A stretch of DNA of 15,549 bases from Gemmatimonadota bacterium (GCA_039587515.1 JBDHII010000077.1:1-15549); one strand, 5' to 3'; positions 1-15,549 are shown, numbered from the stretch's first letter. The notes: a model not told the origin generated them from the sequence alone. Translations and numbers: made by a program.

Positions 1-382
1 CCGGCTTCTCGGCCCGGATCTTCAGGTGGAAGTCGTCGGCGACCAGATCGAGCGCCAGCGACTCCACGGAGAAGAGTGCGTACGCCAGCTGGGTCTCGTC
101 GCACTCGCCACGATTCCTGCGCTTGTCGAAGCTCAGCGTGTGCATGGCGTAGCGGAGGAGGGCGATCCGGTAGACGATCCAGTCGTCGCTCTCCTTGAGG
201 GAGAAGCAGCGTTGTCGGATGAGGCGAACGGCCGAGAGGATCTTTCGGAAGCGGAGATCCCACTTCGCGAACTTCAGCGTATCGGGGAGCTCGTCGGCTT
301 CGGACGGAATCCGCTGTGTGAGCAGGTACTCCTCGAAGACCCTGAGACGCGGCAGGTCGTCTGGGTCGAACGCCTTGCTCAT
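1..382 (-). CDS. Hypothetical protein, partial. Its N-terminus is at 382 and it runs off the left edge of the window.
   Basis: Hand translation of the reverse strand from an ATG at 382..380: MSKAFDPDDLPRLRVFEEYLLHQRIPSEADELPDTLKFAKWDLRFRKILSAVRLIRQRCFSLKESDD..., open to position 1. GC3-rich codon usage matches its neighbours. It starts 8 nt after the stop of the upstream APH-like gene. It is absent from the ORF track because no stop lies inside the window. I did not recognise a family. Confidence 0.45.
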   Translation of the reverse strand, partial: MSKAFDPDDLPRLRVFEEYLLTQRIPSEADELPDTLKFAKWDLRFRKILSAVRLIRQRCFSLKESDDWIVYRIALLRYAMHTLSFDKRRNRGECDETQLAYALFSVESLALDLVADDFHLKIRAEKP

Positions 383-390
383 GACGAACT

Positions 391-1830
391 TCACGTCGTT
401 CCGAGCTTGGCGAAGTCCAGTTCGAGAGGATGAACGCCGCTGTGGGTCCAGTCGATGAACCAGACGTTGTCGCCCTCGTCACAGATGACGTTCGCGAGGT
501 TCAGGTCGCCGTGTTGGAGGCAGGTCTCCGACTGGACCGAGTCGGGATTGCGCGTGACGAGCCGTACGAGACTCTCGAGCTGATCGAGATCCACGGGCTC
601 GACGGGCCCGCCCAGCTCCTCCACGTATCCCAGAATGAGCTCCCCGTTTTCGCGGAGCCATCGGACCTGCTGCTCGGACTGCAGCCCGAGGCCGCGGAAG
701 GGGGCGACGGGAGCCCGGTCCAGGGTGTTCCCGTAGAGCTTTCCGCAGAGCAGGTCGAGCGACTTCTCCAACCGGCTCAGAAAATGTTGGACGGAGGCCT
801 CTCCCGCGGCCGTCTCGAAGTGGTCCTGCAGCGTCGTGGGACGACCCTCCATGGCCGCCAGCTCCATGCCGACCCCGAGCAGCTCTCCCTCCGTGACGGG
901 ATAGCCGAACGTCGGCACGTGCTTGCCGAAGAAGTCCTTCACCTGATGGTACCCGTCCAACTCCCTGCGCATCTGGGAGAACGCGTCGATCTTGATCACC
1001 ATCGGCTCGGTCCGCGCGTCTCCCATCCAACCGTCGGCCAGGAAGAGAAGGCTGCCGCTGAAGCCGCCGGCCAGGGCCCGAAGGTGCGTGCGGGTCCAGT
1101 GCATGCAGATCATCTGCACGATCCGCTGCGCCTCGTCCGGCAGCTGTGCCTGCGCTTCCGGAGGCCCGATCTCGCAGGGCCGGGCAGCCTCGAGACCGGC
1201 CGCCGCCGGATCGACGTCCACCCAGCGGGCGGCTTCCTCGAGATCCAGGAGGACGCGCACCCCGGAGCGGGGAAGCGTGTGCCGGAGCGCGGCGAAATGC
1301 GCTTCCGATGTGGCGCTACCCACGAGATGGGGGCAGATCGCGACCCTCTCGAAACCCAGAACGCTCCTCAGGAAGGTCGCGACCGCCTGGACGCGCTTCT
1401 CGGTGTGGCAGCCGACGACGAGAAACGTCAGGTCCGCCTCACCCTTTTCGATGCTCCGGACCTCGGCTCCACTGACCTCCGACACGACCCGGAGGAAATC
1501 GCGCCAAGGAATCAGCCCGGGTGAGCAAGAGATGCTCGGCACGCCCTCGGCGAGCTCCTCGAGGGGTTCGACCCACTCGCTGAGCGTGCCGGCCGATTCG
1601 GAGTGCGCACCGGCGGACTCCGCCTCCTCTCGCAGGAGGATCAACCGTGTGCTCGCACCCGACTCGGCAGACGCCCGGATCAGGCGAGGGAGGGGCCCGT
1701 CCCCGTACGCCCGACCTCGACCCATGAGGCGGGCGATCTCCCGTGCGCCCAGATTCGACGGGAGCCCGTTGAACTGCTTCTCCGGGCTCAGCGTGGAACG
1801 GACCAGGCTGTCGGCGACGACGATGTTCAT
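391..1830 (-). CDS. Two-domain protein: an unidentified ~220-aa N-terminal domain plus a C-terminal APH/ChoK-fold phosphotransferase (aminoglycoside phosphotransferase / homoserine-kinase-II-like).
   Basis: ATG start at 1830. The C-terminal motifs are GGFSGSLLFLADG...VIKI (nucleotide-binding region), the Brenner motif HGDLNLANV (HGDxxxxN) and FIDWTHSG (the metal-binding D), which are diagnostic of the APH/ChoK kinase fold. The N-terminal half (MNIVVADSLV...LTFLVVGCHTEKRVQAVATFL...) did not match a family by eye. The stop at 391 is 8 nt before the next minus-strand ATG. Confidence 0.7.
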   Translation of the reverse strand: MNIVVADSLVRSTLSPEKQFNGLPSNLGAREIARLMGRGRAYGDGPLPRLIRASAESGASTRLILLREEAESAGAHSESAGTLSEWVEPLEELAEGVPSISCSPGLIPWRDFLRVVSEVSGAEVRSIEKGEADLTFLVVGCHTEKRVQAVATFLRSVLGFERVAICPHLVGSATSEAHFAALRHTLPRSGVRVLLDLEEAARWVDVDPAAAGLEAARPCEIGPPEAQAQLPDEAQRIVQMICMHWTRTHLRALAGGFSGSLLFLADGWMGDARTEPMVIKIDAFSQMRRELDGYHQVKDFFGKHVPTFGYPVTEGELLGVGMELAAMEGRPTTLQDHFETAAGEASVQHFLSRLEKSLDLLCGKLYGNTLDRAPVAPFRGLGLQSEQQVRWLRENGELILGYVEELGGPVEPVDLDQLESLVRLVTRNPDSVQSETCLQHGDLNLANVICDEGDNVWFIDWTHSGVHPLELDFAKLGTT

Positions 1831-1840
1831 GCGTTATGAC

Positions 1841-3151
1841 CTAGAGGATGCAGCCGTCCGACACCAGGTCGGCCAGCTTTTCGGACTTGTCAGACGAGAT
1901 ACGGCGGAGGACCTCTTTGAACTCCGGGTAATCCGCGCGCAGCCGATTGAAGGCCGTGCTCGGCAGGAAGAAGATGTCACAGTGACTCAAAGCGTACACC
2001 GAGCCGGTCCGGCGCTCCCCCAGCAACAGTGACAGGTCGCCGAAGTAGTCTCCTGCCTCGAATTCCCCGAAAGACTTTGTGTCGCCCTCACCCCTGATCG
2101 CAAGCCGGCCGCTACCGACGAAGTAGAGTCCGGTGGCCACCTCCCCCTCCCGCACGACGTAACTGCCGGGGACGAACACCTGGGGCTCGAGGTGCATGAG
2201 GAGCGCGTTGCGAAGCGGCTCATCGGCATGGGTGAAGAGGGGAACACGCTCCGTCAGGTCCCGGGTGAGATGGTAGAGGACGTCGAGGCGGATCGGGTCG
2301 GGCAGGTCCTCGAGAAACCGCTGGGTGCTCACCCCCCGGTGCCGATCCCAGAGGTACTCGTAGTAGGCCTGGACCTGGGCCTGCAGCTCGAGGGGAACGC
2401 CTCTGTTCTGCAGGTAGCGGTTCACGCCCTCGACGCGGTCCCAGAAGGTGGACTTCGCCGCGTCGATCGCGCGGACGAGCGAGGCGATGCTTCCGATGAT
2501 CAGCGCGTACATCGAGGCACCGACGATCATGACGACCAGCGTGAAGAGATACTCGGCGTTGCGCGATGGAGTGATGTCTCCGAATCCCACGGTCGTGGTC
2601 GTCACGAACCCCCAATAGAGCGAGCGAAGGTACTGGCTGCCGACGTCCAGCGACTCGATGCCCGCGAGAACCACCCAGGAGTCCGCCGGGAATCCCTCCA
2701 CGACCGCGACGAGAAACCACCCGCAGGCGATCCAGTGGATCAGGACGAAGACGCCCACGACGAGCTTCGTGATTCTCAGATAGCCGGTGTTCGTGGAGCG
2801 CAGTCGCTCCCAGCCCCGAAAGGCTCGGAAGAGTCGGCCGATGCGAAGGAGGCGATTGGTCCTGAGCAGGAGCGCGAGCGGGATCCCGCCCAACGTGGCC
2901 GCGGAGCCGAGGAAGAGGAGATCGATCGGAACGGTGCCCGCAACGTCTGTCCAGAAGCCCGAGCGGCGGTATCGCCGAGCGATGGCTTTACGGTCGTGGA
3001 CCTCGGCTCCCCCGGCTCGGAACGGCGTGCGAAAGCCGAGCCGAATGTCGATCAGAAAGGCGAGGTCCAGCAGGTAGACGATCAGGCTCCCGACGAGGCC
3101 GACCTGCCGAAAGAAGGCGATCTGGGCGGGCACCACGACGACCGTGGCCAA
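1841..3151 (-). CDS. Cyclic-nucleotide-gated K+ channel (6TM, CNG/HCN-like; SthK/LliK/MloK1 type).
   Basis: There is an S4-like arginine ladder (LLLRTNRLLRIGRLFRAFRGWERLR) and a K+ selectivity filter (TTTVGFGD). A C-linker follows with eukaryote-like CNG/HCN spacing (YYEYLWDRHRGVSTQRFLEDLPDPIRLDVLYHLTRDL...VPLF...QVFVPGSYVVREGEVATGLYFVGSGRLAI). The CNBD phosphate-binding cassette is present (FGEFEAGDYFGDLSLLLGERRTGSVYA). The start is TTG at 3151 with no SD. The frame stays open upstream but contains no other start codon. Confidence 0.85.
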   Translation of the reverse strand: MATVVVVPAQIAFFRQVGLVGSLIVYLLDLAFLIDIRLGFRTPFRAGGAEVHDRKAIARRYRRSGFWTDVAGTVPIDLLFLGSAATLGGIPLALLLRTNRLLRIGRLFRAFRGWERLRSTNTGYLRITKLVVGVFVLIHWIACGWFLVAVVEGFPADSWVVLAGIESLDVGSQYLRSLYWGFVTTTTVGFGDITPSRNAEYLFTLVVMIVGASMYALIIGSIASLVRAIDAAKSTFWDRVEGVNRYLQNRGVPLELQAQVQAYYEYLWDRHRGVSTQRFLEDLPDPIRLDVLYHLTRDLTERVPLFTHADEPLRNALLMHLEPQVFVPGSYVVREGEVATGLYFVGSGRLAIRGEGDTKSFGEFEAGDYFGDLSLLLGERRTGSVYALSHCDIFFLPSTAFNRLRADYPEFKEVLRRISSDKSEKLADLVSDGCIL

Positions 3152-3252
3152 GACCGCACCGGCGATGAAGAGGTCCCACCCGGCGCGAGATCTCGACCCC
3201 TCGAGGATCGGGGGGTTGGGACGAATCGGTGCCTCTGGGGCGACCTGCCCGC

Positions 3253-3585
3253 TCAGAAGCCCTCCAGCGCCTCGGCCTCGGAGGGGAAGACGGCGAAGAT
3301 CGTGCTGAACCCGGAGATCTCGAAGACTTCGGCCACCGTCTCGTTGAGGCCGCAGAGTCTCAGGTTTCCGCCGGTTCCCCGGAGCTTCTTGGCCGTGGCC
3401 AGCAGCACGCGGAGACCGGCGCTCGAGATGTAGTCGAGGTCGGTGAAGTCCACCAACACCTTCGCGACCCCCTGTGCGGCGAGGTCGTCGAGGCGCTCCT
3501 GTGCCTCGGGCGCGGTGTTGGTATCCAGGTTCCCCTCGACTTGCACGACGGTGACGCCGTCGGCCTCACGAAGTGAGATGTTCAC
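3253..3585 (-). CDS. Anti-sigma-factor antagonist (single STAS domain, RsbV/SpoIIAA-like).
   Basis: 110 aa. The motif ...LVDFTDLDYISSAGLRVLL... carries the phosphorylatable Ser context seen in SpoIIAA/RsbV. The GTG start at 3585 is preceded by a GAGGAGGA SD. GTGA overlaps the stop of the upstream PP2C-kinase gene. Confidence 0.85.
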   Translation of the reverse strand: MNISLREADGVTVVQVEGNLDTNTAPEAQERLDDLAAQGVAKVLVDFTDLDYISSAGLRVLLATAKKLRGTGGNLRLCGLNETVAEVFEISGFSTIFAVFPSEAEALEGF

Positions 3586-5279
3586 GCATCCTCCTCATCG
3601 GTTTCGATGCCAGAAAGGTATTTCACCAGGACCACCACGTTCCGGTCCGTACGTCGGGTGTAGGACACCTCGTCCATCAAGCTCTCGACGAGGTGGATGC
3701 CGAGACCGCCGATGTCGCGCTCGTCGATCTCCAGAGCGGTGTCCGGGCTCGCCCGCCCGAAGGGGTTGAACGGCTGCCCGTCGTCGGTCAGACGAACGGC
3801 GAGCCGATCCGACGAGAGCTCGATGTGGACGTCGATCACGTGCTCTTCGTCGTCGGTGTACGCATAGGAAATGACGTTGTTGAGCAAGTCGTCGAAGACG
3901 AGCTTCAAGCTTCGGCGGACCTTCTCCGGGAGGCCGTGCTCGGCCGAGAACGCTTCGAAGGCCTCGTTGACCCGGTCGATCTCCTCCAGACGGTTCGCGG
4001 CCTCGACGTGAAGCACGTGAATGTCCGCCGCCCCCCCGGCCCGCCCGACGAAGCGGACAGCGAGAACCGTCACGTCGTCCGCCTGCTCGGCCTCGGCCTG
4101 GAAGCGCCAGACGTCCTCGGTGGACGCCGCCACCATGTCCTCCACGGTCTCGAACGGCTTCGAGTCCAGGATCTCGACCAGACGGTCCTCTTCGTAGAGC
4201 GTGCCGTCCGGATCCATCGCCTCGGTCACGCCGTCCGTGTACAGGAAGACGAAGTCGCCCGACTCCAACTGGCCCTTGGACTCTCCGTAGACCAGCCCGT
4301 CGACCGCGCCGATCACCGGCCCGTGCCGCTTGTCGAGCCGGATGCTCTGACCGTCCGACCGCTTCAGGTACGGCGGGTTGTGGCCCGCGTTGGTGTAGAG
4401 GAACTCGCCGGTGCTCACATCCAGGATTCCGAGCCATAGCGTGACGAACATCGCCGAGTCGTTGTTCTGGGAGATCTCGTCGTTGACATGGGTCAGAATG
4501 CTCGCCGGGGAAAAGTCGTTCGTCGCCCGGGATTTGATCAGCGTCTTGGTGACGGCCATGAAGAGCGCGGCCGGGACGCCCTTCCCCGAAACGTCGCCCA
4601 CGCAAAAGCAGAATCGGTCTTCGTCGATCAGGAAGAAGTCGTAGAAGTCCCCGCCCACCTCCCTCGCCGGCTCCAGCGTGGCGAACACGGTGAAGTCGTT
4701 GCGGTGCGGGAACGGAGGGAACTCGAGTGGGAGCATGCTCATCTGAATGTCCCGCCCGATGTTCAGCTCGCTCTCCATGCGCTCCTTGGCCGTCGTCGTT
4801 CGACGCAGGTTGTCGAAAGACTCCTGCAGCTCGCGGTTCTTGACCGTGAGCTCGCCCATCAGCGCGTCGCGACTCTTCTCTTCCACCATCGCGCGCAAGG
4901 CCGCGAGCCGACGCTCCGACAGCGCCGCCTGATTCAGGCTGGCGAGATGCAAGCCGAGCCTGAGAGCGGGCTCTCCGTCCACGCGCACACGGTGCACGTT
5001 GTCGAAGAAGGCTGCCGCGAACTCCCCGTCGACCTCACGGTCGACGCCCACGAAATCGAGGACGAGTTCCGGCATCACCGCGTCCGGGAGGACCCGCACG
5101 TCGATGCGTCCCGCGTCCGACATGCGCTCCACGACTCTGTAGAGCTGTGAGGTCACCGAGGCGATTCGGCTCGCCAGCATTCGGTCCCCTGTCAGCTCCT
5201 CCAACACACGCTGGACCTTCCGGCGTGCGTCGGAAACGGAGCCGATCCCGCCCCCCGTGATCGTTCCGACGTCGATCAT
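3582..5279 (-). CDS. Three-part signalling protein: an unknown N-terminal domain (~150 aa), a PP2C phosphatase (SpoIIE/RsbU type) and a C-terminal RsbW/SpoIIAB-like GHKL serine kinase (anti-sigma-factor type).
   Basis: ATG at 5279. A coiled-coil lead-in (ELNIGRDIQMSMLP) precedes the PP2C metal-site motifs GGDFYDF, GDVSGKGVPAALFMA, YTDGVTEA and DDVTVLAV. The C-terminal HATPase_c motifs are NNVISYAY (N box), DDGQPFNP (D/G box) and GGLGIHLV (G box). ATGA overlaps the upstream gene and GTGA overlaps the downstream STAS gene. Confidence 0.85.
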   Translation of the reverse strand: MIDVGTITGGGIGSVSDARRKVQRVLEELTGDRMLASRIASVTSQLYRVVERMSDAGRIDVRVLPDAVMPELVLDFVGVDREVDGEFAAAFFDNVHRVRVDGEPALRLGLHLASLNQAALSERRLAALRAMVEEKSRDALMGELTVKNRELQESFDNLRRTTTAKERMESELNIGRDIQMSMLPLEFPPFPHRNDFTVFATLEPAREVGGDFYDFFLIDEDRFCFCVGDVSGKGVPAALFMAVTKTLIKSRATNDFSPASILTHVNDEISQNNDSAMFVTLWLGILDVSTGEFLYTNAGHNPPYLKRSDGQSIRLDKRHGPVIGAVDGLVYGESKGQLESGDFVFLYTDGVTEAMDPDGTLYEEDRLVEILDSKPFETVEDMVAASTEDVWRFQAEAEQADDVTVLAVRFVGRAGGAADIHVLHVEAANRLEEIDRVNEAFEAFSAEHGLPEKVRRSLKLVFDDLLNNVISYAYTDDEEHVIDVHIELSSDRLAVRLTDDGQPFNPFGRASPDTALEIDERDIGGLGIHLVESLMDEVSYTRRTDRNVVVLVKYLSGIETDEEDA

Positions 5280-6376
5280 CGCGTCTTGAAACGACAGACG
5301 ACCACGGTCGCGTCGTCGTGTCTCTTTCCGTATCGGCCCACGATCTTCTCGGCTACGGTTTCGGCCGACTGGTAGCGCAGCTGAGGGTAGTCGTCGAACG
5401 TCGTGCGGTCCGAGATGCCGTCCGTGTGAATGATCAGCACGTCTCCCTCGGTGAGCCGGGCTGAATCGACACGGACATTCTTGACCTGAGAGCCCACGGT
5501 GCCTGCCGTGGCCGTGAGCCGCAGGGCTCGCTCTCCCTCGAGTCGAAGGACCGTGTTCCCGACCGCGGCATAGCGTGTCGTTCCCGAAGACAGCTCGATC
5601 CAGCAGAGAGAGACGGCGGCGCCTACGGTCTCCCGAAGTCGCTCGTTCAGCTTCTTCATCAGGTGACCGAGATCCGAGGTGGGCTCGCGCCGCACGTACC
5701 GTGTCGCGGCCTTTGCCGCCCCGTTGGCCTCCCTTCCGTGGCCCAGGCCGTCGACCACCACGATGAGCACGCCGTCTTCCACTTCGGTGACCGCGACGCC
5801 GTCTCCGCTCACGAGCTCTCCGCGACAGGGCCGGTTCACGTACGCCACCTCGAGCGGCCGGCTCTCTGCATCACCGGCCGGAAAGAGCAGGTTGCCTCGA
5901 TCCGTTCCGCGTTCCGAGAAGGCCTCGCTCCCGGTGACGGCGGCGGGCAGCGAGACCCGCCTCGGAGGAGAGACGGATTCGAGCCACTTCTGCACGACCA
6001 CCGTCGTCCCCTCACCGGTCTTGGATTCGATCGAGAAGTCGTCGACCATCCGCCTGACCCCCGGCAACCCGAGGCCGAGCGTCCCGCTCGAGCTGAAGTG
6101 ATCTCGCAGGGCCTCCTCGACGTTCTCGATACCCGGCCCCCGATCGGCGACCGTGATCTGCATGCCGCGACGGCTGCCCGATTGCACCTCTTCGATCGTG
6201 ACGCGACCGAACTCGGCGTACTTGAGAATGTTTGTCGCCAGCTCCGACACGACGGTTCCGATCGAGCGACTCTGCAGCTCGTTGAACTCCATCTCGCGCG
6301 CGAACTGCGTTGCCGAAACCACGGCGTGGGTCACGTCCGGATCGGTCCGGATTCTTCGCACGGTTCTACTCGGCAT
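5276..6376 (-). CDS. Fusion protein: an RsbT-like serine kinase (N-terminal) joined to an RsbX-like PP2C phosphatase (C-terminal).
   Basis: The N-terminal ~135 aa align by eye to B. subtilis RsbT: SELATNILKYA...TIEEVQSGSRRGMQITVADRGPGIEN...GLGLPGVRRMVDDFSIESKTGEGTTVVVQKWL. The C-terminal half aligns to RsbX: VSGDGVAV...VVVDGLGHGREAN...AAVGNTV...DVLIIHTDGIS...DDATVVVC. The start I chose is the ATG at 6376, which overlaps the end of the RsbS gene by 11 nt (gATGccgagTAG). The Arg-rich extension in the ORF track (start 6532) looks out-of-frame and is probably not translated. Confidence 0.8.
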   Translation of the reverse strand: MPSRTVRRIRTDPDVTHAVVSATQFAREMEFNELQSRSIGTVVSELATNILKYAEFGRVTIEEVQSGSRRGMQITVADRGPGIENVEEALRDHFSSSGTLGLGLPGVRRMVDDFSIESKTGEGTTVVVQKWLESVSPPRRVSLPAAVTGSEAFSERGTDRGNLLFPAGDAESRPLEVAYVNRPCRGELVSGDGVAVTEVEDGVLIVVVDGLGHGREANGAAKAATRYVRREPTSDLGHLMKKLNERLRETVGAAVSLCWIELSSGTTRYAAVGNTVLRLEGERALRLTATAGTVGSQVKNVRVDSARLTEGDVLIIHTDGISDRTTFDDYPQLRYQSAETVAEKIVGRYGKRHDDATVVVCRFKTR

Positions 6377-6839
6377 CGTCCTCGTCGACCGACGTCGCCT
6401 CAGTGGGCGCCCCCGCCTCGAGCTCGGTATCCGCTTCAAGGTCGGACTCCCCCTCGCCCGCGGGCTCCGTACGGCGCAGCTCCGCCATGCGTGCGAAGGC
6501 ATCGTCGAGCGTCGCGGTGGCCTCCACACCACGCGTATCCGCTCCCAGGTCGATCAGGGCCGAGACCACGCCGGGCTGGAGGCCGGATACGACGGTCACG
6601 GCGCCGAGGAGCCGTGCCATCCGCATGGTGTCGCGAAGCGCCTGAAACTCGACCGAGTCCATCACCGTCACGCCCGACAGATCCAGAATGACACCGCGAG
6701 CTCCCGAAGCGCGGACGAACTCGAGCAGCTCGTTGCGGAAGGCGCTGAGAATCCGGTCGTCCAGATCCACCTGGATCGACGCGACCACGCACTCCTGGGC
6801 CAGCTGGAGCGGGATCTTCGACGCTTCCTCCGTACTCAT
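6366..6839 (-). CDS. rsbS: RsbS-like STAS protein (stressosome core antagonist) with an acidic C-terminal tail.
   Basis: GVILDLSGVTVMDSVEFQAL...LLGAVTVVSGLQPGVVSALIDLG aligns with the B. subtilis RsbS segment VVIDLTSVDMIDSFIAKVL...GIQPAVAVTLIELG and conserves the phospho-Ser. ATG at 6839. The start lies 2 nt after the rsbR stop. Confidence 0.85.
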   Translation of the reverse strand: MSTEEASKIPLQLAQECVVASIQVDLDDRILSAFRNELLEFVRASGARGVILDLSGVTVMDSVEFQALRDTMRMARLLGAVTVVSGLQPGVVSALIDLGADTRGVEATATLDDAFARMAELRRTEPAGEGESDLEADTELEAGAPTEATSVDEDDAE

Positions 6840-6841
6840 CT

Positions 6842-7753
6842 TCAGCGCGCGCCGCTTCCCTTTCGTCCGATCGTCTGAACCGCGTCGGCCAGCGCGTCGC
6901 GCATCGTCGCCGTCGTCTTCACCTCACCCACGTCGATCCCGAGGTCGACGATCGTCTGGGCGATGGCCGGCGAGACTCCGGAGATCGTCGTCTCACAGCC
7001 CATGAGCTTGGTCGCCCGGGTGATCTTGATGAGGTGGTTCGCCACGGCCGTATCCACGACTCCAACCCCGCTGATGTCGAGAATGAAGACGCGGGCCTGC
7101 GACTCGGCGATCTTGCCGAGCGTGGCGTTCATGATGTCCCGAGACCGCTTCGAATCGATGATTCCGACGATCGGCAGGAACAGGAGGCTCTCCCAGATCT
7201 GCGTCACCGGCGTCGACATCTCCATGAGCGACCGGGACTGGGCGGTCAGCGTCTGCTCGACGAGGTGATTGTAGGTGTCGACGACGATGGCCGTGTCGAG
7301 ATGCAAGAGCTTGATGACGGCATCGAGCGTGGGAGCCCGATCAGCATCCGCGAAATCCCCCTCACGGATGACCATGCTGAACAGCTCCTGAAACATGTTC
7401 ATCCCGGCGAAGTACGTGTTCAGCGGCAGTCCGATGCGGGCATGCGCCTCTCCGACGAGCCGGCGCCGCTCGACGTATTCCGCATCGACCGTCCCCGCCA
7501 TGAAGGCCTCCCAGTAGCCCTGTTGCAGGGATTGGACGCGCTTCAGCGTCTCGGGATCCGCGAAGAACTCGTCGTAGTCGGGGAGCTTGGCGAGCCACTC
7601 GTACCACTTGTCCACAAGCTCGTCCATTCGGGCCAAGGCCTGCTCCCCGAAGATACGAATCCGCTCCAGGCCTTCATCGTCGAGGCGATACAGCTCCAGG
7701 AGCGCCCTGTGATCGACATGATGGTCGCCCGTCGTTGCGTAGTGACCGGCCAT
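6842..7753 (-). CDS. rsbR: RsbR-like stressosome sensor: an N-terminal globin-coupled sensor (protoglobin-type) domain plus a C-terminal STAS domain.
   Basis: The C-terminus VFILDISGVGVVDTAVANHLIKITRATKLMGCETTISGVSPAIAQTIVDLGIDV is near-colinear with B. subtilis RsbRA (GVPVVDTMVAHHI...GIRPEIAQTIVNLGIEL), including the Thr phospho-sites. The N-terminal domain shows globin-sensor features (YWEAF..., VGEAHARIGLPLNTYFAG with a candidate proximal His). The start is the ATG at 7753 behind an AGGAGG SD (AGGAGGCGAGCTTTCAATG). The ORF-track extension to 8011 is Arg/Trp-rich out-of-frame junk. Confidence 0.8.
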   Translation of the reverse strand: MAGHYATTGDHHVDHRALLELYRLDDEGLERIRIFGEQALARMDELVDKWYEWLAKLPDYDEFFADPETLKRVQSLQQGYWEAFMAGTVDAEYVERRRLVGEAHARIGLPLNTYFAGMNMFQELFSMVIREGDFADADRAPTLDAVIKLLHLDTAIVVDTYNHLVEQTLTAQSRSLMEMSTPVTQIWESLLFLPIVGIIDSKRSRDIMNATLGKIAESQARVFILDISGVGVVDTAVANHLIKITRATKLMGCETTISGVSPAIAQTIVDLGIDVGEVKTTATMRDALADAVQTIGRKGSGAR

Positions 7754-7805
7754 TGAAAGCTCGCCTCCTGTGATGAAAGCCCCCGCCTCTGGCGGCAGGG
7801 TATCC

Positions 7806-9704
7806 TCAATTCTCGTGTTCGACTGCGATCTCGATGGCATCGCGAAGCGTGCGCGCCGTGACGATGCCGTGAATGTCCACGTTGCTCTCCGCCATCCGTG
7901 CGGCCATCTCCGGCCGCACCCCGGATATGATCGCCCGGGCCCCCAACAAGCCGGCCGAGCGCGCGACCTTGAGAAGCCCCTGGGCGACATCGTCGTCCAG
8001 GTTGGGCACACCCGTCAGATCCAGGATCGCGAACCGCGCACCCTTCTCGTGCAGCTGACTCGTCAGCGACTGGCGAAGCTGCTCACAGCGGGCCGTGTCG
8101 AGCTCGCCCACGAGAGGGAGCACGACCACGTCGTCGTGAATCGGGATGAGCGGGGTCGAGAGCGCTTCGATCGAGCGGTTTTGCCGATCGATCAGCTCTC
8201 GAAGCGAGACGCGCATCGCCTCGAAGCTGCCAGCCAGCTCCCCGATCTCGTCACCCCGATCGACTTCGACCTGGGCTTCGAGGTCGCCGCTCGCCAGTTG
8301 ACTCGCCGTGACGGAGAGCGCTCGGATCGGGCGCGTCAGATTTCCTGCGAACCAGACTGCGAGCGCACCGAGGAGCGGAAGAAGGAGCGCGACCCACAGG
8401 AGCATGCGATTGCGCTGAGCGACGACCGGCGAGAGCGCCTCCGCGGCGTCGATCTCACTCATCAAAACCCAATCCAGGTCTGGAATGCTCAGGGGTCGGA
8501 AGCTCGAGAACACCTCGACGTCCCGGTAGTCCGGAAAGCGGGCCACGCCCGTCTCGCCGCCGAGCGCGAGCTCCGTACCGCGGGTCCGGACGGGCTGGAG
8601 GCCTACGGCGCTCCCCTGCGCCTCGATGGACCGAACCGTTGCCGGAGGCACACCCGCCTCACCGATCGCCGTGAGATACGCCTCGACGTCCTCCACCAGG
8701 AACCTCGACTCGGTCCTCAGCCGGTAGTCGGGGCCTACGAGGTAGGACTCGCCGGACTCACCGAGCCCGGTCGCCTGCCAAGCCGCCCCGCTCGTCATCA
8801 CGTCGTTGATGCGGTCCAACGGAAGCTGGAAAACCAGAACGCCCAGGAGCTCGCCGTCCTGCATCACGGGTGAGGCGATGAAAGAAGCTTGGGCACCGTA
8901 GGAAGGAGCGTACGGCTCGAAGTCTTCGAGCCGCGTGAAAGCGGCGCTTCCGGCGGCCAGCGCAGCGCGGTAGACCGAAGCGAGGTTGGATTCTCGGTAC
9001 GGACCCGCCTCGAGCGTCGTGCCGAAGTCGACCTCTTTGAAAACCGAGTAGACGATGCGGTGCGTCTGCGCATCGACCAGGAAGACGTCGTAGTAGCCGA
9101 AGCGTTCCAGGAAGCTCCGGAGCAGCGGGTGATAGCGCCCATGCACCGCGTCGTACCGCGTGCCCGCTTCGGCACGGTCCAGCAGGTGCTTGGAGCCCAC
9201 AGCGAAGGGGTTCGAGCTCACGTAGAGGTATTGGAGTAGACGCCCCAGTCCGTCCGATGGCCAATATTCCGAGAGCGGGCCGGCATCGTCCGAATTGGCC
9301 GAGAGCCTCGGAAGAAACTCGTCCTGGTAGTAGAGCCTCAGGCCGAGGTCGAGGTCACTCGCCGACGGCCCGGAGGCCAGAAGCTCGTTCTCCAGCGTTC
9401 GCGCCGCGGCAGTAAACTCGCGGAGCGCCTCCACGACCATGAGGTTCTCGGACTGGGTGACCACCTGGTCGCGGATCGTCTCGAAGTAGCCCTCGATCTG
9501 CCGGCCCTTGAGCTCCCGGACCGACGTCAGTAGATCGAGGGCCTGCTGCTCGGAGGTGGAGACGCCGAGGCGGTAGGCCACGGCAGCCATCGTCCCGACC
9601 GAGATGATCGTTACGATCGCCAGCACCGAGAGGACGCGCAGGCGGATCGAGAGATCCCTCAGACCCTGGCTCGATGCGCCGGCTCGCTCAGACTCTGGTG
9701 ACAC
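7806..9704 (-). CDS. Membrane-anchored sensor: TM1, a ~380-aa periplasmic Cache-like (double PAS-like) domain, TM2, a HAMP domain and a C-terminal RsbR/RsbS-type STAS domain.
   Basis: The hydrophobic segments are VLSVLAIVTIISVGTMAAVAY and MLLWVALLLPLLGALAVWFAG. HAMP is indicated by LTRPIRALSVTASQLASGDLEAQVEVDRGDEIGELAGSFEAMRVSL. The STAS motif is FAILDLTGVPNLDDDVAQGL...AIISGVRPEMAARMAES, which is stressosome-type but has Asp in place of the phosphorylatable Ser/Thr. The GTG start at 9704 overlaps the upstream small ORF by 17 nt. Confidence 0.75.
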   Translation of the reverse strand: MSPESERAGASSQGLRDLSIRLRVLSVLAIVTIISVGTMAAVAYRLGVSTSEQQALDLLTSVRELKGRQIEGYFETIRDQVVTQSENLMVVEALREFTAAARTLENELLASGPSASDLDLGLRLYYQDEFLPRLSANSDDAGPLSEYWPSDGLGRLLQYLYVSSNPFAVGSKHLLDRAEAGTRYDAVHGRYHPLLRSFLERFGYYDVFLVDAQTHRIVYSVFKEVDFGTTLEAGPYRESNLASVYRAALAAGSAAFTRLEDFEPYAPSYGAQASFIASPVMQDGELLGVLVFQLPLDRINDVMTSGAAWQATGLGESGESYLVGPDYRLRTESRFLVEDVEAYLTAIGEAGVPPATVRSIEAQGSAVGLQPVRTRGTELALGGETGVARFPDYRDVEVFSSFRPLSIPDLDWVLMSEIDAAEALSPVVAQRNRMLLWVALLLPLLGALAVWFAGNLTRPIRALSVTASQLASGDLEAQVEVDRGDEIGELAGSFEAMRVSLRELIDRQNRSIEALSTPLIPIHDDVVVLPLVGELDTARCEQLRQSLTSQLHEKGARFAILDLTGVPNLDDDVAQGLLKVARSAGLLGARAIISGVRPEMAARMAESNVDIHGIVTARTLRDAIEIAVEHEN

Positions 9705-10083
9705 GCACGCTTCCGGTTGGAAGGGTCACGTACCAGACCGACTCCGTGATGACGGATTCGACCGGATAGACGAGCCCTCCCTGGTCGAGCGCGTCCCCGA
9801 GCCGCATCGCTACGGAGATCCGGCCCTCCTCCACCCACTGGTTGTCCGCCTGGACCGTGAAAGCCAGTCCGGGACCGATCTGGGCCGCGAGAGAGGTGTG
9901 ACCCCCTTCATAGACATCCACCACCGCCTCGGACGGATCCGGATTGGCGCTGAGGACCCATGCGCCGGACGTCTCCTCGTGCGTCAGGAACTCCTCACGC
10001 GTCTCCCGATAGAGGACCGAGTCGGGACCGAGTCCGCCGAGCTCCAATGTCTCTCGCAACGCCTTCGCGGTCGCATCGTCCAT
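9688..10083 (-). CDS. Hypothetical protein (131 aa).
   Basis: ATG at 10083 with a GGAGGAGAAGTG-ATG SD. MDDATAKALRETLELGG...VRVTRV. GC3-rich. Its stop overlaps the GTG start of the Cache-HAMP-STAS gene (GTGTCACCAGAGTCTGA). I found no recognisable motif. Confidence 0.45.
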   Translation of the reverse strand: MDDATAKALRETLELGGLGPDSVLYRETREEFLTHEETSGAWVLSANPDPSEAVVDVYEGGHTSLAAQIGPGLAFTVQADNQWVEEGRISVAMRLGDALDQGGLVYPVESVITESVWYVTLPTGSVRVTRV

Positions 10084-10158
10084 CACTTCTCCTCCCACGC
10101 GAGTTTACCGGAGTCTGAGTCTGACCCCAGGGCGAAGTCTCCGCAATCACCCGATCGC

Positions 10159-11178
10159 TCAGAGCTCCTTGGGGATCTCGGCGGTCGACGTGGACTCGCC
10201 TCCGCGCGCCATGCGCTCGAAGTCGACGCCGGTAGCCGTCTTCATCTGCTCGATCATCGAAACGGCACTCCCCGTGAGGTTGCGAACGTAGTTCGGCAGC
10301 CCCTCGCCGCCCTGCTCCCCCCCTCCGTCGAGGATCGTGAGCTTGTCCACGCGCAGGTTGTCCGCTACCACGCGCGTGACCTTCTCGATCAGGTCCGGGA
10401 ACATGTGGATGAGGAAGAGCTCGTGGGTCTTGCCCTCGTCCCATTCCGCCCTCATCAGCTGGACGGCGTCGGCCGTGGCCTTCCCCTGCTCCCGGATGCG
10501 GGCCGCTTCTCCTTCAGCCCGAAGCCGCTCCGCCTCCGCCATGGCCGTCGCGGGGATCACCGTGTCGGCCTCATGCCTCCGCTTGCTCAACTCGGCCCGG
10601 ATGGACTCGAGCTCGACCTCGCGCTCGACGCGGGCGATCTGCCCGGCGACCTGGGCGCGCTCGCGTGCCTCGTTCTCGGACGCTTTGAGGTTGGCCCGCT
10701 CGACCTCCAGCGCGTTTTCCTTCTGGATGACCAGCTGCTCGGCGGCGATCTCCGCCTCCCGCCCGACGCGACGCTGCTCGGCCGACACCTCCCTCGCCTG
10801 AGCTTCCGCCTCCGCCTCCGCGATCTGAGCGTCGCGGTGCACCTCGGCATTACGCTTGCGTCCGATGGCCTGCAGGTAGCCCGCCTCGTCCGAGAGGTCG
10901 TGGATCTGGAAGAAGTCCAGCACGATGCCGAGGCCGGCGAGCTCCTCACGCGCACGCTCCGCCACTTCCTGGGCCAGCTCGAGCCGGCGCTCATTGGCCT
11001 CTTCCGGTCGGACGCCCGCGATCACGCCGCGCAACGCACCCTCCAGCACCTGCTGCGCCGTCTTGTCGATGGCCTCTACGCCCTTGCCGAGGAACCGCTC
11101 GATGCCCGCCTCGAGCCCCTGCTCCTCCCGACCGGCGAGCTTCACGTTCGCACGGCCCTCGATGTCGACCGGGATCAT
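10159..11178 (-). CDS. Flotillin-family protein, C-terminal portion (the end of the SPFH domain plus Ala/Glu-rich coiled-coil repeats).
   Basis: IERFLGK...EGALRGVIAGVRPEEANERR..LAQEVAERAREELAGLGIVLDFFQIHDLSDEAGYLQAIGRKRNAEVHRDAQIAEAEAEAQA... matches the flotillin (FloT/YqiK) SPFH end and EA-repeat region. It begins at an ATG that overlaps (ATGA) the stop of the 66-aa N-terminal fragment. It is probably one gene interrupted by a frameshift (see findings). Confidence 0.75.
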   Translation of the reverse strand: MIPVDIEGRANVKLAGREEQGLEAGIERFLGKGVEAIDKTAQQVLEGALRGVIAGVRPEEANERRLELAQEVAERAREELAGLGIVLDFFQIHDLSDEAGYLQAIGRKRNAEVHRDAQIAEAEAEAQAREVSAEQRRVGREAEIAAEQLVIQKENALEVERANLKASENEARERAQVAGQIARVEREVELESIRAELSKRRHEADTVIPATAMAEAERLRAEGEAARIREQGKATADAVQLMRAEWDEGKTHELFLIHMFPDLIEKVTRVVADNLRVDKLTILDGGGEQGGEGLPNYVRNLTGSAVSMIEQMKTATGVDFERMARGGESTSTAEIPKEL

Positions 11179-11375
11179 CCCCAGAAGCCCCGACCACCCC
11201 GGATCAGCCGATAGCCGACGGTCGTGCCGTCCTTGGCCTGACGCTTCCGGCCCGAAATGATCACGACCTCGTTGGGCTGGCAGATCACGATGTTGGCCTT
11301 GATGAAGATCACCAGGGCCAGAACGGCCAGCGCCCCCACACCAAGGTAGATCCCGATAAGCTGTGCTTGATCCAT
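11175..11375 (-). CDS. Flotillin N-terminal fragment (a TM anchor plus the start of the SPFH domain), 66 aa.
   Basis: ATG at 11375 with a GAAGGAA SD, 19 nt after the glnA stop. LIGIYLGVGALAVLALVIFI (TM) is followed by IVICQPNEVVIISGRK...GYRLIRGGRGFWG, the canonical flotillin N-terminus. It ends at a TGA embedded in ATGA. Confidence 0.6.
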   Translation of the reverse strand: MDQAQLIGIYLGVGALAVLALVIFIKANIVICQPNEVVIISGRKRQAKDGTTVGYRLIRGGRGFWG

Positions 11376-11394
11376 GATGGTTCCTTCGGCCGCG

Positions 11395-12831
11395 CTACGC
11401 GTTGAAGTACAGAGCGAACTCCCCGGGGTGAGGCCGGAGGCGCACGTAGTCGATCTCGTTCTTTCGCTTGTAGTCGATCCAGGTTTCGATCAGGTCTTCA
11501 GTGAAAACGCCGTCCCGGACCAGGAAGTCGTAATCCGCTTCGAGCGCCGAGATCGCCTCGTCCAGGGTCCCCGGAGTGCGCTCGATCTCCCTTCCTCCCG
11601 AGCCCGCCGCAAGCTCGTAGATGTCTTCGTCCACGGGGTCGGCAGGCTCCAGCCCACGCCGAATCCCGTCGATTCCGGCGCACATGATCGCCGCGAAGCT
11701 GAGATAGGGGTTGCACGACGGATCTGGCGTGCGGAACTCGATCCGCTTCGACTTCGGACCCCCGGTCATCGTCGGGATGCGGATGCACGCGCTCCGGTTC
11801 CGTCCCGAATAGAGCAGGTTCATCGGGGCCTCGTAGCCCGGTACGAGCCTCCGATAGGAGTTCGTCGTCGGACAGCAGATCCCACAGAGAGCTCGGGCGT
11901 GCTCCAGTAGCCCCCCGATGAAGTGGACCGCCAGCGGGCTCAGGTCACCGTAGGTGCCCGCCTGGTAGAACACGTTCTTCCCCTCTTTCGAGAGGCTGAT
12001 GTTGTGGTGCATGCCCGAGCCGTTTTCCTGAAGGAGAGGCTTGGGCATGAAAGTGGCCGTCTTCCCGTACCGGGCCACCACGTTCTTGACCACGTACTTG
12101 TACATGATCGAGGCGTCGGCCTGGCTCAGCAGCGGACCGAACCGGAAGCCGATCTCGCACTGGCCCGCAGCACCCACCTCGTGATGGTGCAGCTCCGGCT
12201 GTAGGCCGACCCGCTTGAGCACGTGGGAGATCTTGGAGCGGAGGTTGTTGTACTGATCGATCGGTGGCGCCGAGAAGTACGCGCCACGCTGCGCGGCTCG
12301 GTGTCCCAGATTCGCGCTGTCACCCTTCTCGCCCGTCGCCCAGGACGCCGCGGAGCTGTTCAGGAAGAAGTACCCGTGCTGGGTGGCCTGATCGAAGCGG
12401 ACCTCGTCGAACACGAAAAACTCGATCTCGGGGCCCAGGTAGGCCGTGTCGGCGATCCCGAGCGAGCGCACGAGCTGCTCGGCCCGACGTGCGACCGAAC
12501 GCGGATCGCGCGAGAAGGTGTAGCGCCCGTTCGGGTCGACGATGTCACAGAAGACCGACAGTGCCGGATCGTCGAAGAAGGGATCCTCGAAGACCGAAGA
12601 CGCGTCGGGAATCAGGAGCATGTCGCTCTGGTTGATCCTCGTGAAGCCGCGGACCGAGGAGCCGTCGAAGGCCATGCCGTTGCGGAACAGGGCCTCGTCC
12701 ACCAGCTCGGCCGGCAGCGTGAGGTGCTGAAGCGTTCCGAAGAGATCCACGAACTTCAGGTCCAGGAACTGGATCTCGCGCTCGCCGATCATGCGGACGA
12801 GGTCGCGCGGGCTGGTTGGATGCCTGGTCAT
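11395..12831 (-). CDS. glnA: Glutamine synthetase, type I.
   Basis: 478 aa. The GS-I signatures are present, including GSGMHHNISL, NPY..., and the N-terminal beta-grasp and catalytic-domain layout. ATG at 12831 behind a GAGGA SD that overlaps the glnK stop. Confidence 0.95.
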   Translation of the reverse strand: MTRHPTSPRDLVRMIGEREIQFLDLKFVDLFGTLQHLTLPAELVDEALFRNGMAFDGSSVRGFTRINQSDMLLIPDASSVFEDPFFDDPALSVFCDIVDPNGRYTFSRDPRSVARRAEQLVRSLGIADTAYLGPEIEFFVFDEVRFDQATQHGYFFLNSSAASWATGEKGDSANLGHRAAQRGAYFSAPPIDQYNNLRSKISHVLKRVGLQPELHHHEVGAAGQCEIGFRFGPLLSQADASIMYKYVVKNVVARYGKTATFMPKPLLQENGSGMHHNISLSKEGKNVFYQAGTYGDLSPLAVHFIGGLLEHARALCGICCPTTNSYRRLVPGYEAPMNLLYSGRNRSACIRIPTMTGGPKSKRIEFRTPDPSCNPYLSFAAIMCAGIDGIRRGLEPADPVDEDIYELAAGSGGREIERTPGTLDEAISALEADYDFLVRDGVFTEDLIETWIDYKRKNEIDYVRLRPHPGEFALYFNA

Positions 12832-12839
12832 CGAGGTCC

Positions 12840-13175
12840 TCAGTAGAGGGCCCGGGAGCCGCGCTCGCCGGTCCAGACAGTGACCACGTCCTGAAGCTCC
12901 AGAACGAAGATCTTACCCGAGCCACCGCTGTCCATGCAGCCCCTCGAGATCGCCTCTATCGCTCGCTCGAGGTTCGCGTCGTTGACGGCGACCTCGAGGC
13001 GAATCCGCTGAAAGAGAGAGACCTCCTTCTTCACGCCCCGGTACGTCTGCTGCTCGGTCCGAGAGGCAGTGCCCATGACGGAGGTTGCCGTCATGTGACG
13101 GACTTCGGTGTCGAACAGCGCCTGCTTGACGGAAGGAAGCTGCTCAGGCTTGATCAGCGCGACGATCATCTTCAT
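12840..13175 (-). CDS. glnK: Nitrogen regulatory protein PII (GlnK/NrgB-like).
   Basis: 111 aa. MKMIVALIKP..., a T-loop ending ...TYRGVKKEV (the B. subtilis NrgB-like YRGVKIE type), and GSGKIFV (B-loop, G[DS]GKIFV). ATG with a GGAGA SD, 18 nt after the amtB stop. Confidence 0.9.
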   Translation of the reverse strand: MKMIVALIKPEQLPSVKQALFDTEVRHMTATSVMGTASRTEQQTYRGVKKEVSLFQRIRLEVAVNDANLERAIEAISRGCMDSGGSGKIFVLELQDVVTVWTGERGSRALY

Positions 13176-15459: not shown

Positions 15460-15549
15460 GAATCCTCCCTTGATGTTTGGGCGTCGAGGATCATGGTCAG
15501 GGGCGATGCCAAGATCAAGGCGAGGCACGGCACGGGCGACTGGCCGGCA

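Follow-up and report, generated by a model that had tools for sequence, protein, structure and literature searches.

The window analysed here is a complete contig of 15,549 nucleotides (nt; 65% G+C) from a Gemmatimonadota bacterium (GCA_039587515.1 JBDHII010000077.1:1-15549), whose closest relatives are Gemmatimonadota and Longimicrobiales metagenome-assembled genomes (MAGs), and nearly all of its genuine genes lie on the minus strand. Positions 1841-3585 hold two adjoining genes, one for a single-domain STAS protein and one for a six-transmembrane K+ channel with a C-terminal cyclic nucleotide-binding domain (CNBD). Together with the genes upstream they make up a predicted partner switch, fed in the window by a stressosome, with an ion channel where a sigma factor or an enzyme would be expected. 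The trio of PP2C/kinase, STAS protein and channel was shown to be conserved across five phyla, with the sensory input exchanged. The channel is taken, at a probability of roughly 45%, to be the effector of the partner switch, the phosphorylation state of the STAS protein controlling it.

What is known of partner switches and stressosomes mostly concerns the control of sigma factors, with a few enzyme outputs, and the bacterial CNBD channels (SthK, LliK and MloK1) are workhorses of structural biophysics for which, to our knowledge, no cellular role has been established. The conserved and apparently translationally coupled pairing suggests that a stress phospho-switch can drive ion conductance, and gives a testable clue to what CNG/HCN-like channels do in bacteria. 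A full-text literature search, which covered only the smaller part of the subscription journals, returned no paper connecting CNG or K+ channels to partner switching, STAS or stressosomes, and the pairing is not mentioned in a review of STAS-only proteins or in a stressosome paper.

The channel and its junction with the STAS gene

The two genes and the features within them are as follows.

3253-3585, minus strand: single-domain STAS protein of the RsbV/SpoIIAA/HsbA type, 110 residues, GTG start (Pfam, PDB matches)
3253-3265, minus strand: STAS-channel junction GGAGGGCTTCTGA, with a Shine-Dalgarno-like GGAGG and a CTG (3256-3254) overlapping the STAS stop TGA (3255-3253)
1841-3256, minus strand: CNBD-family six-transmembrane K+ channel, 471 codons if the start is CTG 3256-3254 (Pfam, PDB, open frame, N-terminal conservation)
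3170-3208, minus strand: codons of the conserved N-terminal motif ILEGSRSRAGWDL (start of S1), containing a CCTCGAGG palindrome at 3199-3206 (alignment)
2798-2878, minus strand: S4 helix LALLLRTNRLLRIGRLFRAFRGWERLR, residues 127-153 counted from CTG 3256
2576-2602, minus strand: pore signature TTTTVGFGD (K+ selectivity filter)
1874-2464, minus strand: C-linker and CNBD, residues about 265-461 (alignment to 4D7S and full-length SthK)
1997-2044, minus strand: phosphate-binding cassette FGDLSLLLGERRTGSV

The first-pass annotation, made from the sequence alone, had named a CNG/HCN-type K+ channel with a full S4 arginine ladder, a TVGFGD filter, and a C-linker and CNBD like those of SthK and LliK and unlike MloK1, and each of these points was borne out. 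The intact minus-strand open reading frame (ORF) ending at 1841 matches Ion_trans, Ion_trans_2 and cNMP_binding in Pfam; Ion_trans (96.1 bits, cut-off 25) covers residues 27-261 and profile positions 4-233 of 241, as expected of six transmembrane helices, and cNMP_binding (62.9 bits) covers residues 359-442. Within S4 (LALLLRTNRLLRIGRLFRAFRGWERLR), arginines occupy positions 6, 9, 12, 15, 18 and 21, a basic residue at every third position, with two more at 25 and 27. The filter, present as TTTTVGFGD (nt 2602-2576), fits the T-[VI]-G-[YF]-G-D signature of K+ channels; in relatives the sequence reads TVGYGD or TVGFGD. The protein ends in a conserved C-terminal tail, ...KLA.LV..GCIL.

SthK was the top PDB sequence match (E 1.2e-62, 358 residues aligned, including the C-linker and the Arg-Thr of the phosphate-binding cassette), followed by CNGA1/A3 (about 1e-61), HCN1 (3e-60; also HCN3/4), LliK (4e-54), TAX-4, KCNH, and plant AKT1/GORK; MloK1 was not among the 60 best. 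Residues 1-197 of 4D7S, a SthK C-linker/CNBD construct, align end to end and ungapped with channel residues 265-461 (E 3.7e-37). About 97 residues, alignable with the SthK C-linker, separate the end of Ion_trans (261) from the beginning of cNMP_binding (359), and a C-linker of about 80 residues is accordingly assigned by alignment between S6 and the CNBD. From its sequence, the gene was thus shown to encode a predicted intact subunit of a tetrameric SthK/HCN/CNG-type K+ channel.

The earlier suggestion that ligand-contacting residues be compared with SthK was followed for the phosphate-binding cassette, where Arg-Thr proved to be conserved (...GERRTGSV in the channel, ...RAPRTATV in SthK). The Arg is invariant in 40 aligned subfamily members, and the next residue is Thr in 38 (Ser in locus L015, Asn in the outlying L044). 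The canonical Gly-Glu of the cassette is Gly-Asp in the window channel, and the second position varies as D/N/F/H/E across the subfamily; in PKA, CAP and HCN this Glu contacts the ribose 2'-OH. Because Arg-Thr is kept and Gly-Glu is replaced, a cyclic nucleotide is the likely, not certain, ligand.

A class III cyclase gene lies on the same strand 11 kb upstream of the CNBD channel, and its presence shows a predicted capacity of the organism to make cyclic nucleotide. As a conserved local source of ligand the gene (15528-14632) was rejected: two homologues, 72-73% identical, lie in unrelated contexts, so that its proximity to the channel is probably not conserved.

The channel joins the prokaryotic CNBD K+ channels of the SthK/LliK type as a new member, its S4 being more like that of HCN or Kv channels. 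SthK (the cAMP-gated channel of Spirochaeta thermophila; PDB 6CJQ) and LliK (5V4S) share with it six transmembrane helices, a T-x-G-Y/F-G-D filter, a full C-linker and a C-terminal CNBD, and are the prokaryotic members with an intact C-linker (PMC6093708). SthK has four basic residues in S4 (PMC6093708) against six regular arginines plus two in the window channel, which also differs from SthK and LliK in the Gly-Asp of its cassette, its conserved C-terminal tail and its partner-switching operon. MloK1 of Mesorhizobium loti is likewise a prokaryotic six-transmembrane K+ channel with a C-terminal CNBD, but has no C-linker (PMC6093708). Among eukaryotic channels, HCN1, CNGA1/A3, KCNH and AKT1/GORK have the same domain order and align from S1 to the C-helix of the CNBD (HCN1 142-594 with query 24-461), whereas the window channel is without an HCN domain, a PAS/eag domain or ankyrin repeats; unlike CNG channels, it has a strict K+ filter and is a bacterial operon gene.

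The channel had been described as co-oriented and directly downstream of an RsbV-like gene, from which a gap of 101 nt (3152-3252) without a terminator was thought to separate it. Its position and orientation were confirmed, and the upstream gene (3585-3253) is a 110-residue STAS protein of the anti-sigma-antagonist type, but the gap did not survive as non-coding sequence. The channel frame runs without interruption from its end at 1841 up through 3252 and on across the STAS gene to its far end, and within 3152-3252 it reads PPILEGSRSRAGWDLFIAGAVL. In an alignment with 17 homologues, the most distant at 51% identity, this stretch falls on their conserved N-terminus and the beginning of S1 (pattern I-x-E-x-S-R-x-R-x-x-W-D-L). 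The same segment lies inside the Ion_trans match (from residue 27) and inside the HCN1 alignment (residue 24 corresponding to HCN1 142). Because the frame is open, the N-terminus is conserved, and the Pfam and HCN1 matches extend into the supposed gap, the coding sequence is judged to reach the STAS stop, and the gap to be an artefact of start-codon calling. The open alternative frame through the STAS gene is unremarkable, since long frames of this kind are expected at 65% G+C.

The annotated starts, TTG 3151 (JGI, 436 residues) and GTG 3136 (NCBI, 431 residues), correspond to residues 36 and 41, against an Ion_trans match that begins at residue 27, and would therefore cut off the beginning of the conserved transmembrane module, read as the first half of S1. 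Upstream of TTG 3151 there is no in-frame ATG, GTG or TTG in the channel frame, and the sole candidate starts are CTG 3256-3254, ATT 3226-3224 and ATC 3208-3206. GGAGG stands 4 nt upstream of CTG 3256, embedded in the STAS C-terminal codons L-E-G-F. Translation likely starts at this CTG, within a CTGA that also holds the STAS stop, giving a probable intercistronic distance of -4 nt, and channel translation would then be coupled to STAS termination, from a CTG or TTG within (C/T)TGA.

The same junction was found as TTGA in L001 and L006, and as CTGA in L003, L004, L005, L007, L008 and L009, so that a CTG inside an overlap with the STAS stop is common to seven genomes including that of the window; in the window, L005 and L009 no canonical in-frame start precedes the WD motif. 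In the STAS frame T and C give the same residue (Phe, TTT/TTC). The complete Gemmatimonadales genome CP070829.1 has TTGA at the junction, with the STAS gene annotated at 9672-10004 and the channel annotated to start at that TTG (10001-11413). Because no canonical start precedes S1, public gene calls truncate the channel (431 and 436 residues for the window, 423 and 442 for the L005 and L009 relatives), which amounts to a systematic annotation error in several genomes, the probable start being a CTG in a CTGA overlap.

Read-through from the STAS gene, earlier called plausible, gains from the probable overlap of -4 nt, which would be one of a chain of overlaps in the operon. No terminator-like site was found in the junction, as had been claimed; nor did a consensus scan find a promoter-like (sigma-70-like) site there, nor Rfam a match, and its RNA fold was not unusual (z = -0.17). 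The CCTCGAGG palindrome is present at 3199-3206 as reported, but it sits in the I-L-E-G codons of the channel and is not over-represented (3 in the window against 1.2 expected, with 27 of 200 shuffles reaching 3), and it was rejected as a regulatory site. Fusion of the STAS protein and channel by -1 frameshifting was rejected by inspection only, GGGCTTCTGA being without a slippery heptamer.

The partner switch and its recurrence beside the channel

The operon runs, on the minus strand, from dCache-HAMP-STAS through protoglobin-STAS, RsbS, an RsbT/RsbX-like kinase-phosphatase, PP2C plus serine kinase, STAS and the channel to an isochorismatase/TCAD9-kinase(/NUDT9) enzyme. The genes upstream of the STAS gene are these.

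3582-5279, minus strand: 565-residue fusion of RsbU and RsbW types with an HsbR-like core, comprising an N-terminal input region, a PP2C (SpoIIE) phosphatase and a GHKL serine kinase (HATPase_c_2)
5276-6532, minus strand, true start probably downstream of 6532: HATPase_c_2 kinase fused to PP2C (RsbT-like plus RsbX-like; L001 orthologue 379 residues)
6366-6839, minus strand: RsbS-like STAS protein, 157 residues (Pfam)
6842-8011, minus strand, true start probably near 7750: protoglobin-STAS protein, a haem-type RsbR-like sensor (Pfam; L001 orthologue 303 residues)
7806-9704, minus strand: dCache-HAMP-STAS protein, RsbR-like (Pfam)

The operon is tightly packed, with 4-nt overlaps ATGA (5279/5276), GTGA (3585/3582) and CTGA (3256/3253), and then a spacer of 10 nt between the channel stop (1843-1841) and the ATG (1830) of the kinase gene, as first reported.

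The 110-residue STAS protein scored 90 bits against Pfam STAS and 96.7 bits against TIGR00377, with SpoIIAA/RsbV as PDB matches. Its Ser55 (codon 3423-3421) aligns with the phospho-serine of the SpoIIAA DSSGLG motif and does not vary among the aligned orthologues, which are 44-87% identical across phyla and were described as unusually conserved. The 565-residue protein matches SpoIIE (182.8 bits) and HATPase_c_2 (87.7 bits), with complete PP2C metal-site and GHKL N/G1/G2-box motifs; its PDB matches are a P. aeruginosa response regulator/PP2C chain (3EQ2), Rv1364c and RsbW, and its best NCBIfam model is Pseudomonas RssB. A phosphorylatable STAS protein, a PP2C and a GHKL kinase are thus predicted, as in a partner-switching system. 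The protoglobin-STAS and dCache-HAMP-STAS proteins are sensors of the RsbR type, and RsbS and RsbT are represented by the 157-residue STAS protein and the following HATPase_c_2 domain (49 bits), which is fused to SpoIIE (48 bits) and so differs from the RsbT of the Bacillus stressosome. No sigma-factor domain was found in the scanned window ORFs or in the called genes of L001 (21 kb), L054, L057, L059 and L061, and no sigma or anti-sigma-target gene occurs in any inspected cluster, so that the cognate sigma factor of a partner switch is absent from these clusters.

Known partner switches share parts of this layout. In HptB-HsbR-HsbA(-HsbD) of P. aeruginosa and RsbU/RsbV/RsbW of Bacillus, a PP2C and a GHKL kinase act on the serine of a STAS protein as proposed here, and the PP2C-kinase at L021 has the HsbR architecture REC-SpoIIE-HATPase_c_2 and stands behind an Hpt hybrid kinase. 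The window differs from both in being without a sigma factor, FlgM or a diguanylate cyclase, and in having an ion channel in the output position; its input is stressosome-like, not a phosphorelay as in the Hsb pathway. Globin-type RsbR, RsbS-like and RsbT-like proteins also occur in the haem/O2-sensing stressosomes of Vibrio brasiliensis and V. vulnificus, whose output is not SigB (PMC4976288, PMC10436020, PMC9237108). The Vibrio cluster continues with VvD1-D2, presumed to be the output module, in which VvD1 has a PAS domain (PMC9237108); PMC10014275 calls it a two-component system. The window adds to the Vibrio arrangement a second stage (PP2C-kinase plus STAS), the channel, the RsbT-PP2C fusion and the dCache-HAMP-STAS paralogue.

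Conservation of the neighbourhood had been set beforehand as the test of the linkage between channel and partner switch. One genome per species was scanned with a channel alignment, giving 43 loci with a channel homologue of 31-68% identity, and neighbours were searched by tblastn with the cluster proteins of the window and of L001; 39 of the 43 loci were informative. The linkage recurs, with STAS/PP2C/kinase genes within about 7 kb of the channel in 22 of the 39 informative genomes, from Gemmatimonadota (13 of 13 informative), Gammaproteobacteria, Planctomycetota, Kiritimatiellales and Bacteroidota. In 16 of 39 the STAS gene directly precedes the channel on the same strand, a class that as listed holds ten Gemmatimonadota, five Gammaproteobacteria (including Woeseiaceae and Chromatiales), one Planctomycetota and one Kiritimatiellales; it is adjacent but divergent in three of 39, and lies 1.6-4.4 kb upstream in two, both Bacteroidota. 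At one further locus the whole Rsb operon is divergent and abuts the channel, with the STAS gene about 6.6 kb away. Linkage is kept at 40-68% channel identity and in two gene orientations, and in a rough neighbour-joining tree the linked loci fall in several clades and the unlinked loci mostly in one. Metagenome contigs reached via exact proteins added more linked cases and one unlinked Poribacteria.

The inputs differ from locus to locus: a stressosome module in the window, L001 and L057; multi-PAS-SpoIIE-HATPase_c_2 in L059 and L060; SBP_bac_3-PAS-SpoIIE-HATPase_c_2 in L054 and L061; a hybrid histidine kinase with Hpt, a REC protein and REC-SpoIIE-HATPase_c_2 in L021 (Woeseiaceae); and, in Urechidicola vernalis, HATPase_c_2, STAS, truncated globin and SpoIIE as separate genes. 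The PP2C-kinase gene of L059 and L060 is on the opposite strand, in an apparent operon with amt-glnK-glnA, and the STAS gene is still directly before the channel.

A globin-type sensor occurs in two phyla, as protoglobin-STAS in Gemmatimonadota (window 6842-8011) and as a free truncated globin in Urechidicola (L041:8419-8778), which hints at O2, NO or redox state as a common input.

Readings of the linkage

If the channel is the effector, haem-ligand, extracellular-ligand or other signals would set the balance of the fused phosphatase and kinase, this balance would set the phosphorylation of STAS Ser55, and the STAS protein in one phosphorylation state would modulate the channel, most simply by binding the cytosolic C-linker/CNBD ring, with cyclic nucleotide and voltage as further inputs to the channel. 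The outcome would be a stress-gated K+ flux or a change in membrane potential, instead of or besides the release of a sigma factor. The proposed binding mirrors the precedent of HsbA, which binds a non-sigma effector encoded nearby, the diguanylate cyclase HsbD (PMC5085249), and the globin-RsbR stressosomes of Vibrio are a precedent for an output other than a sigma factor (PMC4976288, PMC9237108). The effector reading draws on the identity of the channel, the packed operon with its overlapping junction, the recurrent linkage, the constant core under changing inputs, the STAS adjacency that outlasts relocation of the PP2C/kinase gene, the STAS gene and channel remnant kept together in the decayed locus L068, the conservation of the STAS orthologues with their invariant Ser, and the absence of a sigma factor gene from the window and from L001. 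A narrower proposal, in which a CNG/HCN-type K+ channel would have the STAS protein as its own gating subunit, acting according to phosphorylation, is put forward very tentatively and is on balance unlikely.

Were this narrower proposal correct, a partner switch would convert oxygen/haem, ligand or nitrogen-status signals directly into a change of K+ conductance and a change in membrane potential, a non-transcriptional, excitability-type output of the stressosome/partner-switch machinery, and the prokaryotic CNBD channels would have their first physiological role and first protein regulator. YugO of Bacillus subtilis biofilms, a two-transmembrane K+ channel with fused TrkA/RCK gating, opens under metabolic (nitrogen/glutamate) stress. 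The analogy is purely functional, its gating apparatus being not homologous and without a partner switch, while the window-type clusters adjoin amt-glnK-glnA in four phyla.

Several observations weigh against the channel as effector. CTG is a poor initiator in model bacteria, and the contig has at least two frameshifts or indels in conserved neighbouring genes within 15.5 kb (kinase, Band_7/SPFH), so that local gene decay is possible. Nearly all loci are MAG or metagenome contigs, and the linked genomes are phylogenetically non-independent. In 17 of the 39 informative genomes (Deltaproteobacteria, Chromatiaceae, Competibacteraceae, cyanobacteria and others) no STAS gene is nearby, and these channels belong to the same subfamily with the same phosphate-binding cassette, filter and C-terminal motifs, which makes the partners separable; no signature in S4, filter, cassette or C-terminus divides STAS-linked from unlinked channels. 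A reverse test, in which metagenomes were scanned with an alignment of the STAS orthologues, returned 16 relatives at least 50% identical with at least 1.3 kb downstream, and the channel follows in only six of them; after the other ten come genes of varied kinds, most of which match no Pfam family. Beyond clade-level differences, no residues were seen that set channel-linked STAS proteins apart from unlinked ones. Contact of the STAS protein with the channel is itself a proposal, and the output could be transcriptional, since HsbR-type kinase domains can serve as anti-sigma factors for an unlinked sigma factor (PMC6482189).

Judged by the reverse test (6 of 16) and the unlinked channels (17 of 39), the cassette extends beyond the channel, and the channel subfamily likewise occurs outside the cassette. 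Their pairing, recurrent yet facultative, fits the pattern of a regulator with an exchangeable effector. The same separability, with the cassette lacking a channel in ten of 16 and the channel lacking a cassette in 17 of 39, would also be expected if the two were merely co-expressed, the PP2C-kinase and STAS protein acting on a sigma factor encoded elsewhere and the channel being useful under the same stress without STAS contact. The RsbW-like kinase domain, the regulation of RpoS by HsbR-HsbA (PMC6482189) and the missing signature in channel-linked STAS proteins fit this account. It is nevertheless held to be rather doubtful, for the STAS-channel adjacency with its stop/start overlap survives relocation of the PP2C/kinase, proximity persists through co-oriented and divergent rearrangements in five phyla, and the inspected clusters hold no sigma or anti-sigma-target gene.

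The partner switch might instead target the enzymes after the channel (isochorismatase-like/TCAD9/NUDT9-type NUDIX, IMPase, TrkA_N), which would make or destroy a nucleotide ligand that the CNBD reads. Gemmatimonadota share the order channel, kinase/NUDIX, Inositol_P, TrkA_N, Planctomycetota L029 keeps it through Inositol_P with no TrkA_N gene detected, a TCAD9 kinase-phosphatase fusion follows the channel in Bacteroidota, and the NUDIX part is most similar to human NUDT9 and TRPM2 NUDT9-H. An isochorismatase-TCAD9 gene stands directly after the STAS gene in L090, a STAS relative outside the 16 with just under 1.3 kb downstream, and in the decayed locus L068, which retains the STAS gene, a 53-residue C-terminal remnant of the channel, and the kinase. 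Replacement of the cassette Glu by D/N/F/H is compatible with a non-standard ligand, but Arg-Thr is canonical for cyclic nucleotides, the linked gammaproteobacterial clade has a Na/Pi cotransporter and not the kinase after the channel, and the chemistry of the enzyme set is putative; an enzyme target is considered improbable. Linkage carries no direction, and the arginine-rich S4 is a plausible voltage sensor, so the channel could also be an input whose K+ flux or membrane potential feeds the phosphatase/kinase and sets STAS phosphorylation. Dedicated sensors (protoglobin, dCache, PAS, SBP, REC) already stand upstream of the PP2C, however, and a channel after the STAS gene occupies the output-gene position of the canonical rsb operon, in which sigB follows rsbV-rsbW, making this reversal very unlikely. 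Hardly credible are chance or hitch-hiking on a transferred island, with an adjacency that has no functional meaning, and, alternatively, a decaying pseudogene that has lost its start codon in the window. No canonical start lies upstream of S1, two neighbouring genes are frameshifted, and the evidence is all comparative; yet the 471-codon frame is intact and 81% identical to P0002, the CTGA junction occurs in six other genomes, two of them also without a canonical start, and linkage held at 40-68% channel identity in five phyla and two orientations already contradicts chance.

Downstream enzymes and nitrogen-related neighbours

The remaining genes of the window are listed below.

1-1830, minus strand: gene for an isochorismatase-like domain plus a TCAD9/APH-type kinase, with a frameshift near 400 and truncated at the contig end
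9688-10098, minus strand: protein of 133-136 residues without a significant Pfam family
10162-11375, minus strand: Band_7/SPFH protein, frameshifted near 11181 (L001 orthologue aligns in two frames)
11395-12831, minus strand: GlnA
12840-13175, minus strand: P-II
13194-14504, minus strand: Amt
14632-15528, minus strand: gene for an SCO4226-like (DUF4242) domain plus a class III adenylate/guanylate (nucleotidyl) cyclase

Full-length orthologues of the gene after the channel have about 856 residues and combine an isochorismatase-like domain, a TCAD9/APH kinase and a NUDT9-like NUDIX domain, for which the best PDB matches are human NUDT9 and the NUDT9-H ligand domain of TRPM2. The 856-residue L001 orthologue (L001:11423-13993) matches frame -1 as far as 403 and then frame -3 over 400-2, one missing base turning ...FAKLENDVKFV... 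into ...FAKLGTT and a stop, which is either an assembly error or gene decay. The Bacteroidota version (L041:11354-13672) has a TCAD9 kinase with a dual-specificity phosphatase in place of NUDIX. An IMPase/CysQ-family (Inositol_P) protein and a membrane protein with TrkA_N domains come next, and the kinase/NUDIX/IMPase/TrkA_N set resembles a nucleotide- or NAD-related module placed next to an ion channel. Concrete genes can be named for the system, with Urechidicola vernalis as a cultured carrier and the TCAD9 kinase/NUDT9-like enzyme, the IMPase-family protein, the TrkA_N membrane protein and amt-glnK-glnA as neighbours.

An amt gene, often accompanied by glnK (P-II) and glnA, is found no more than 10 kb from the STAS-linked channel in the window (14504-11395) and in L001, L004, L007/L059, L010, L011, L019, L021, L029, L041 and L042. 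This proximity spans Gemmatimonadota, Woeseiaceae, Planctomycetota and Bacteroidota and was seen at no unlinked channel locus. At L059 and L060 the PAS-PP2C-kinase gene heads the apparent operon with amt-glnK-glnA-Band_7. These arrangements suggest a tie of the clusters to ammonium or nitrogen status. In one Gemmatimonadota lineage, a gene of the Bestrophin_2 family (anion channel) ends the divergent amt-glnK-glnA-Band_7 operon (L059:1-404, L060:1-251).

The protein of about 133 residues recurs in these clusters (window 9688-10098, L001:3136-3537, L041:13684-14079), with only a borderline AvrPphF-ORF-2 match (25.0 bits, at the curated cut-off); its gene precedes the sensor genes in Gemmatimonadota and, at 30% identity, follows the kinase in Urechidicola.

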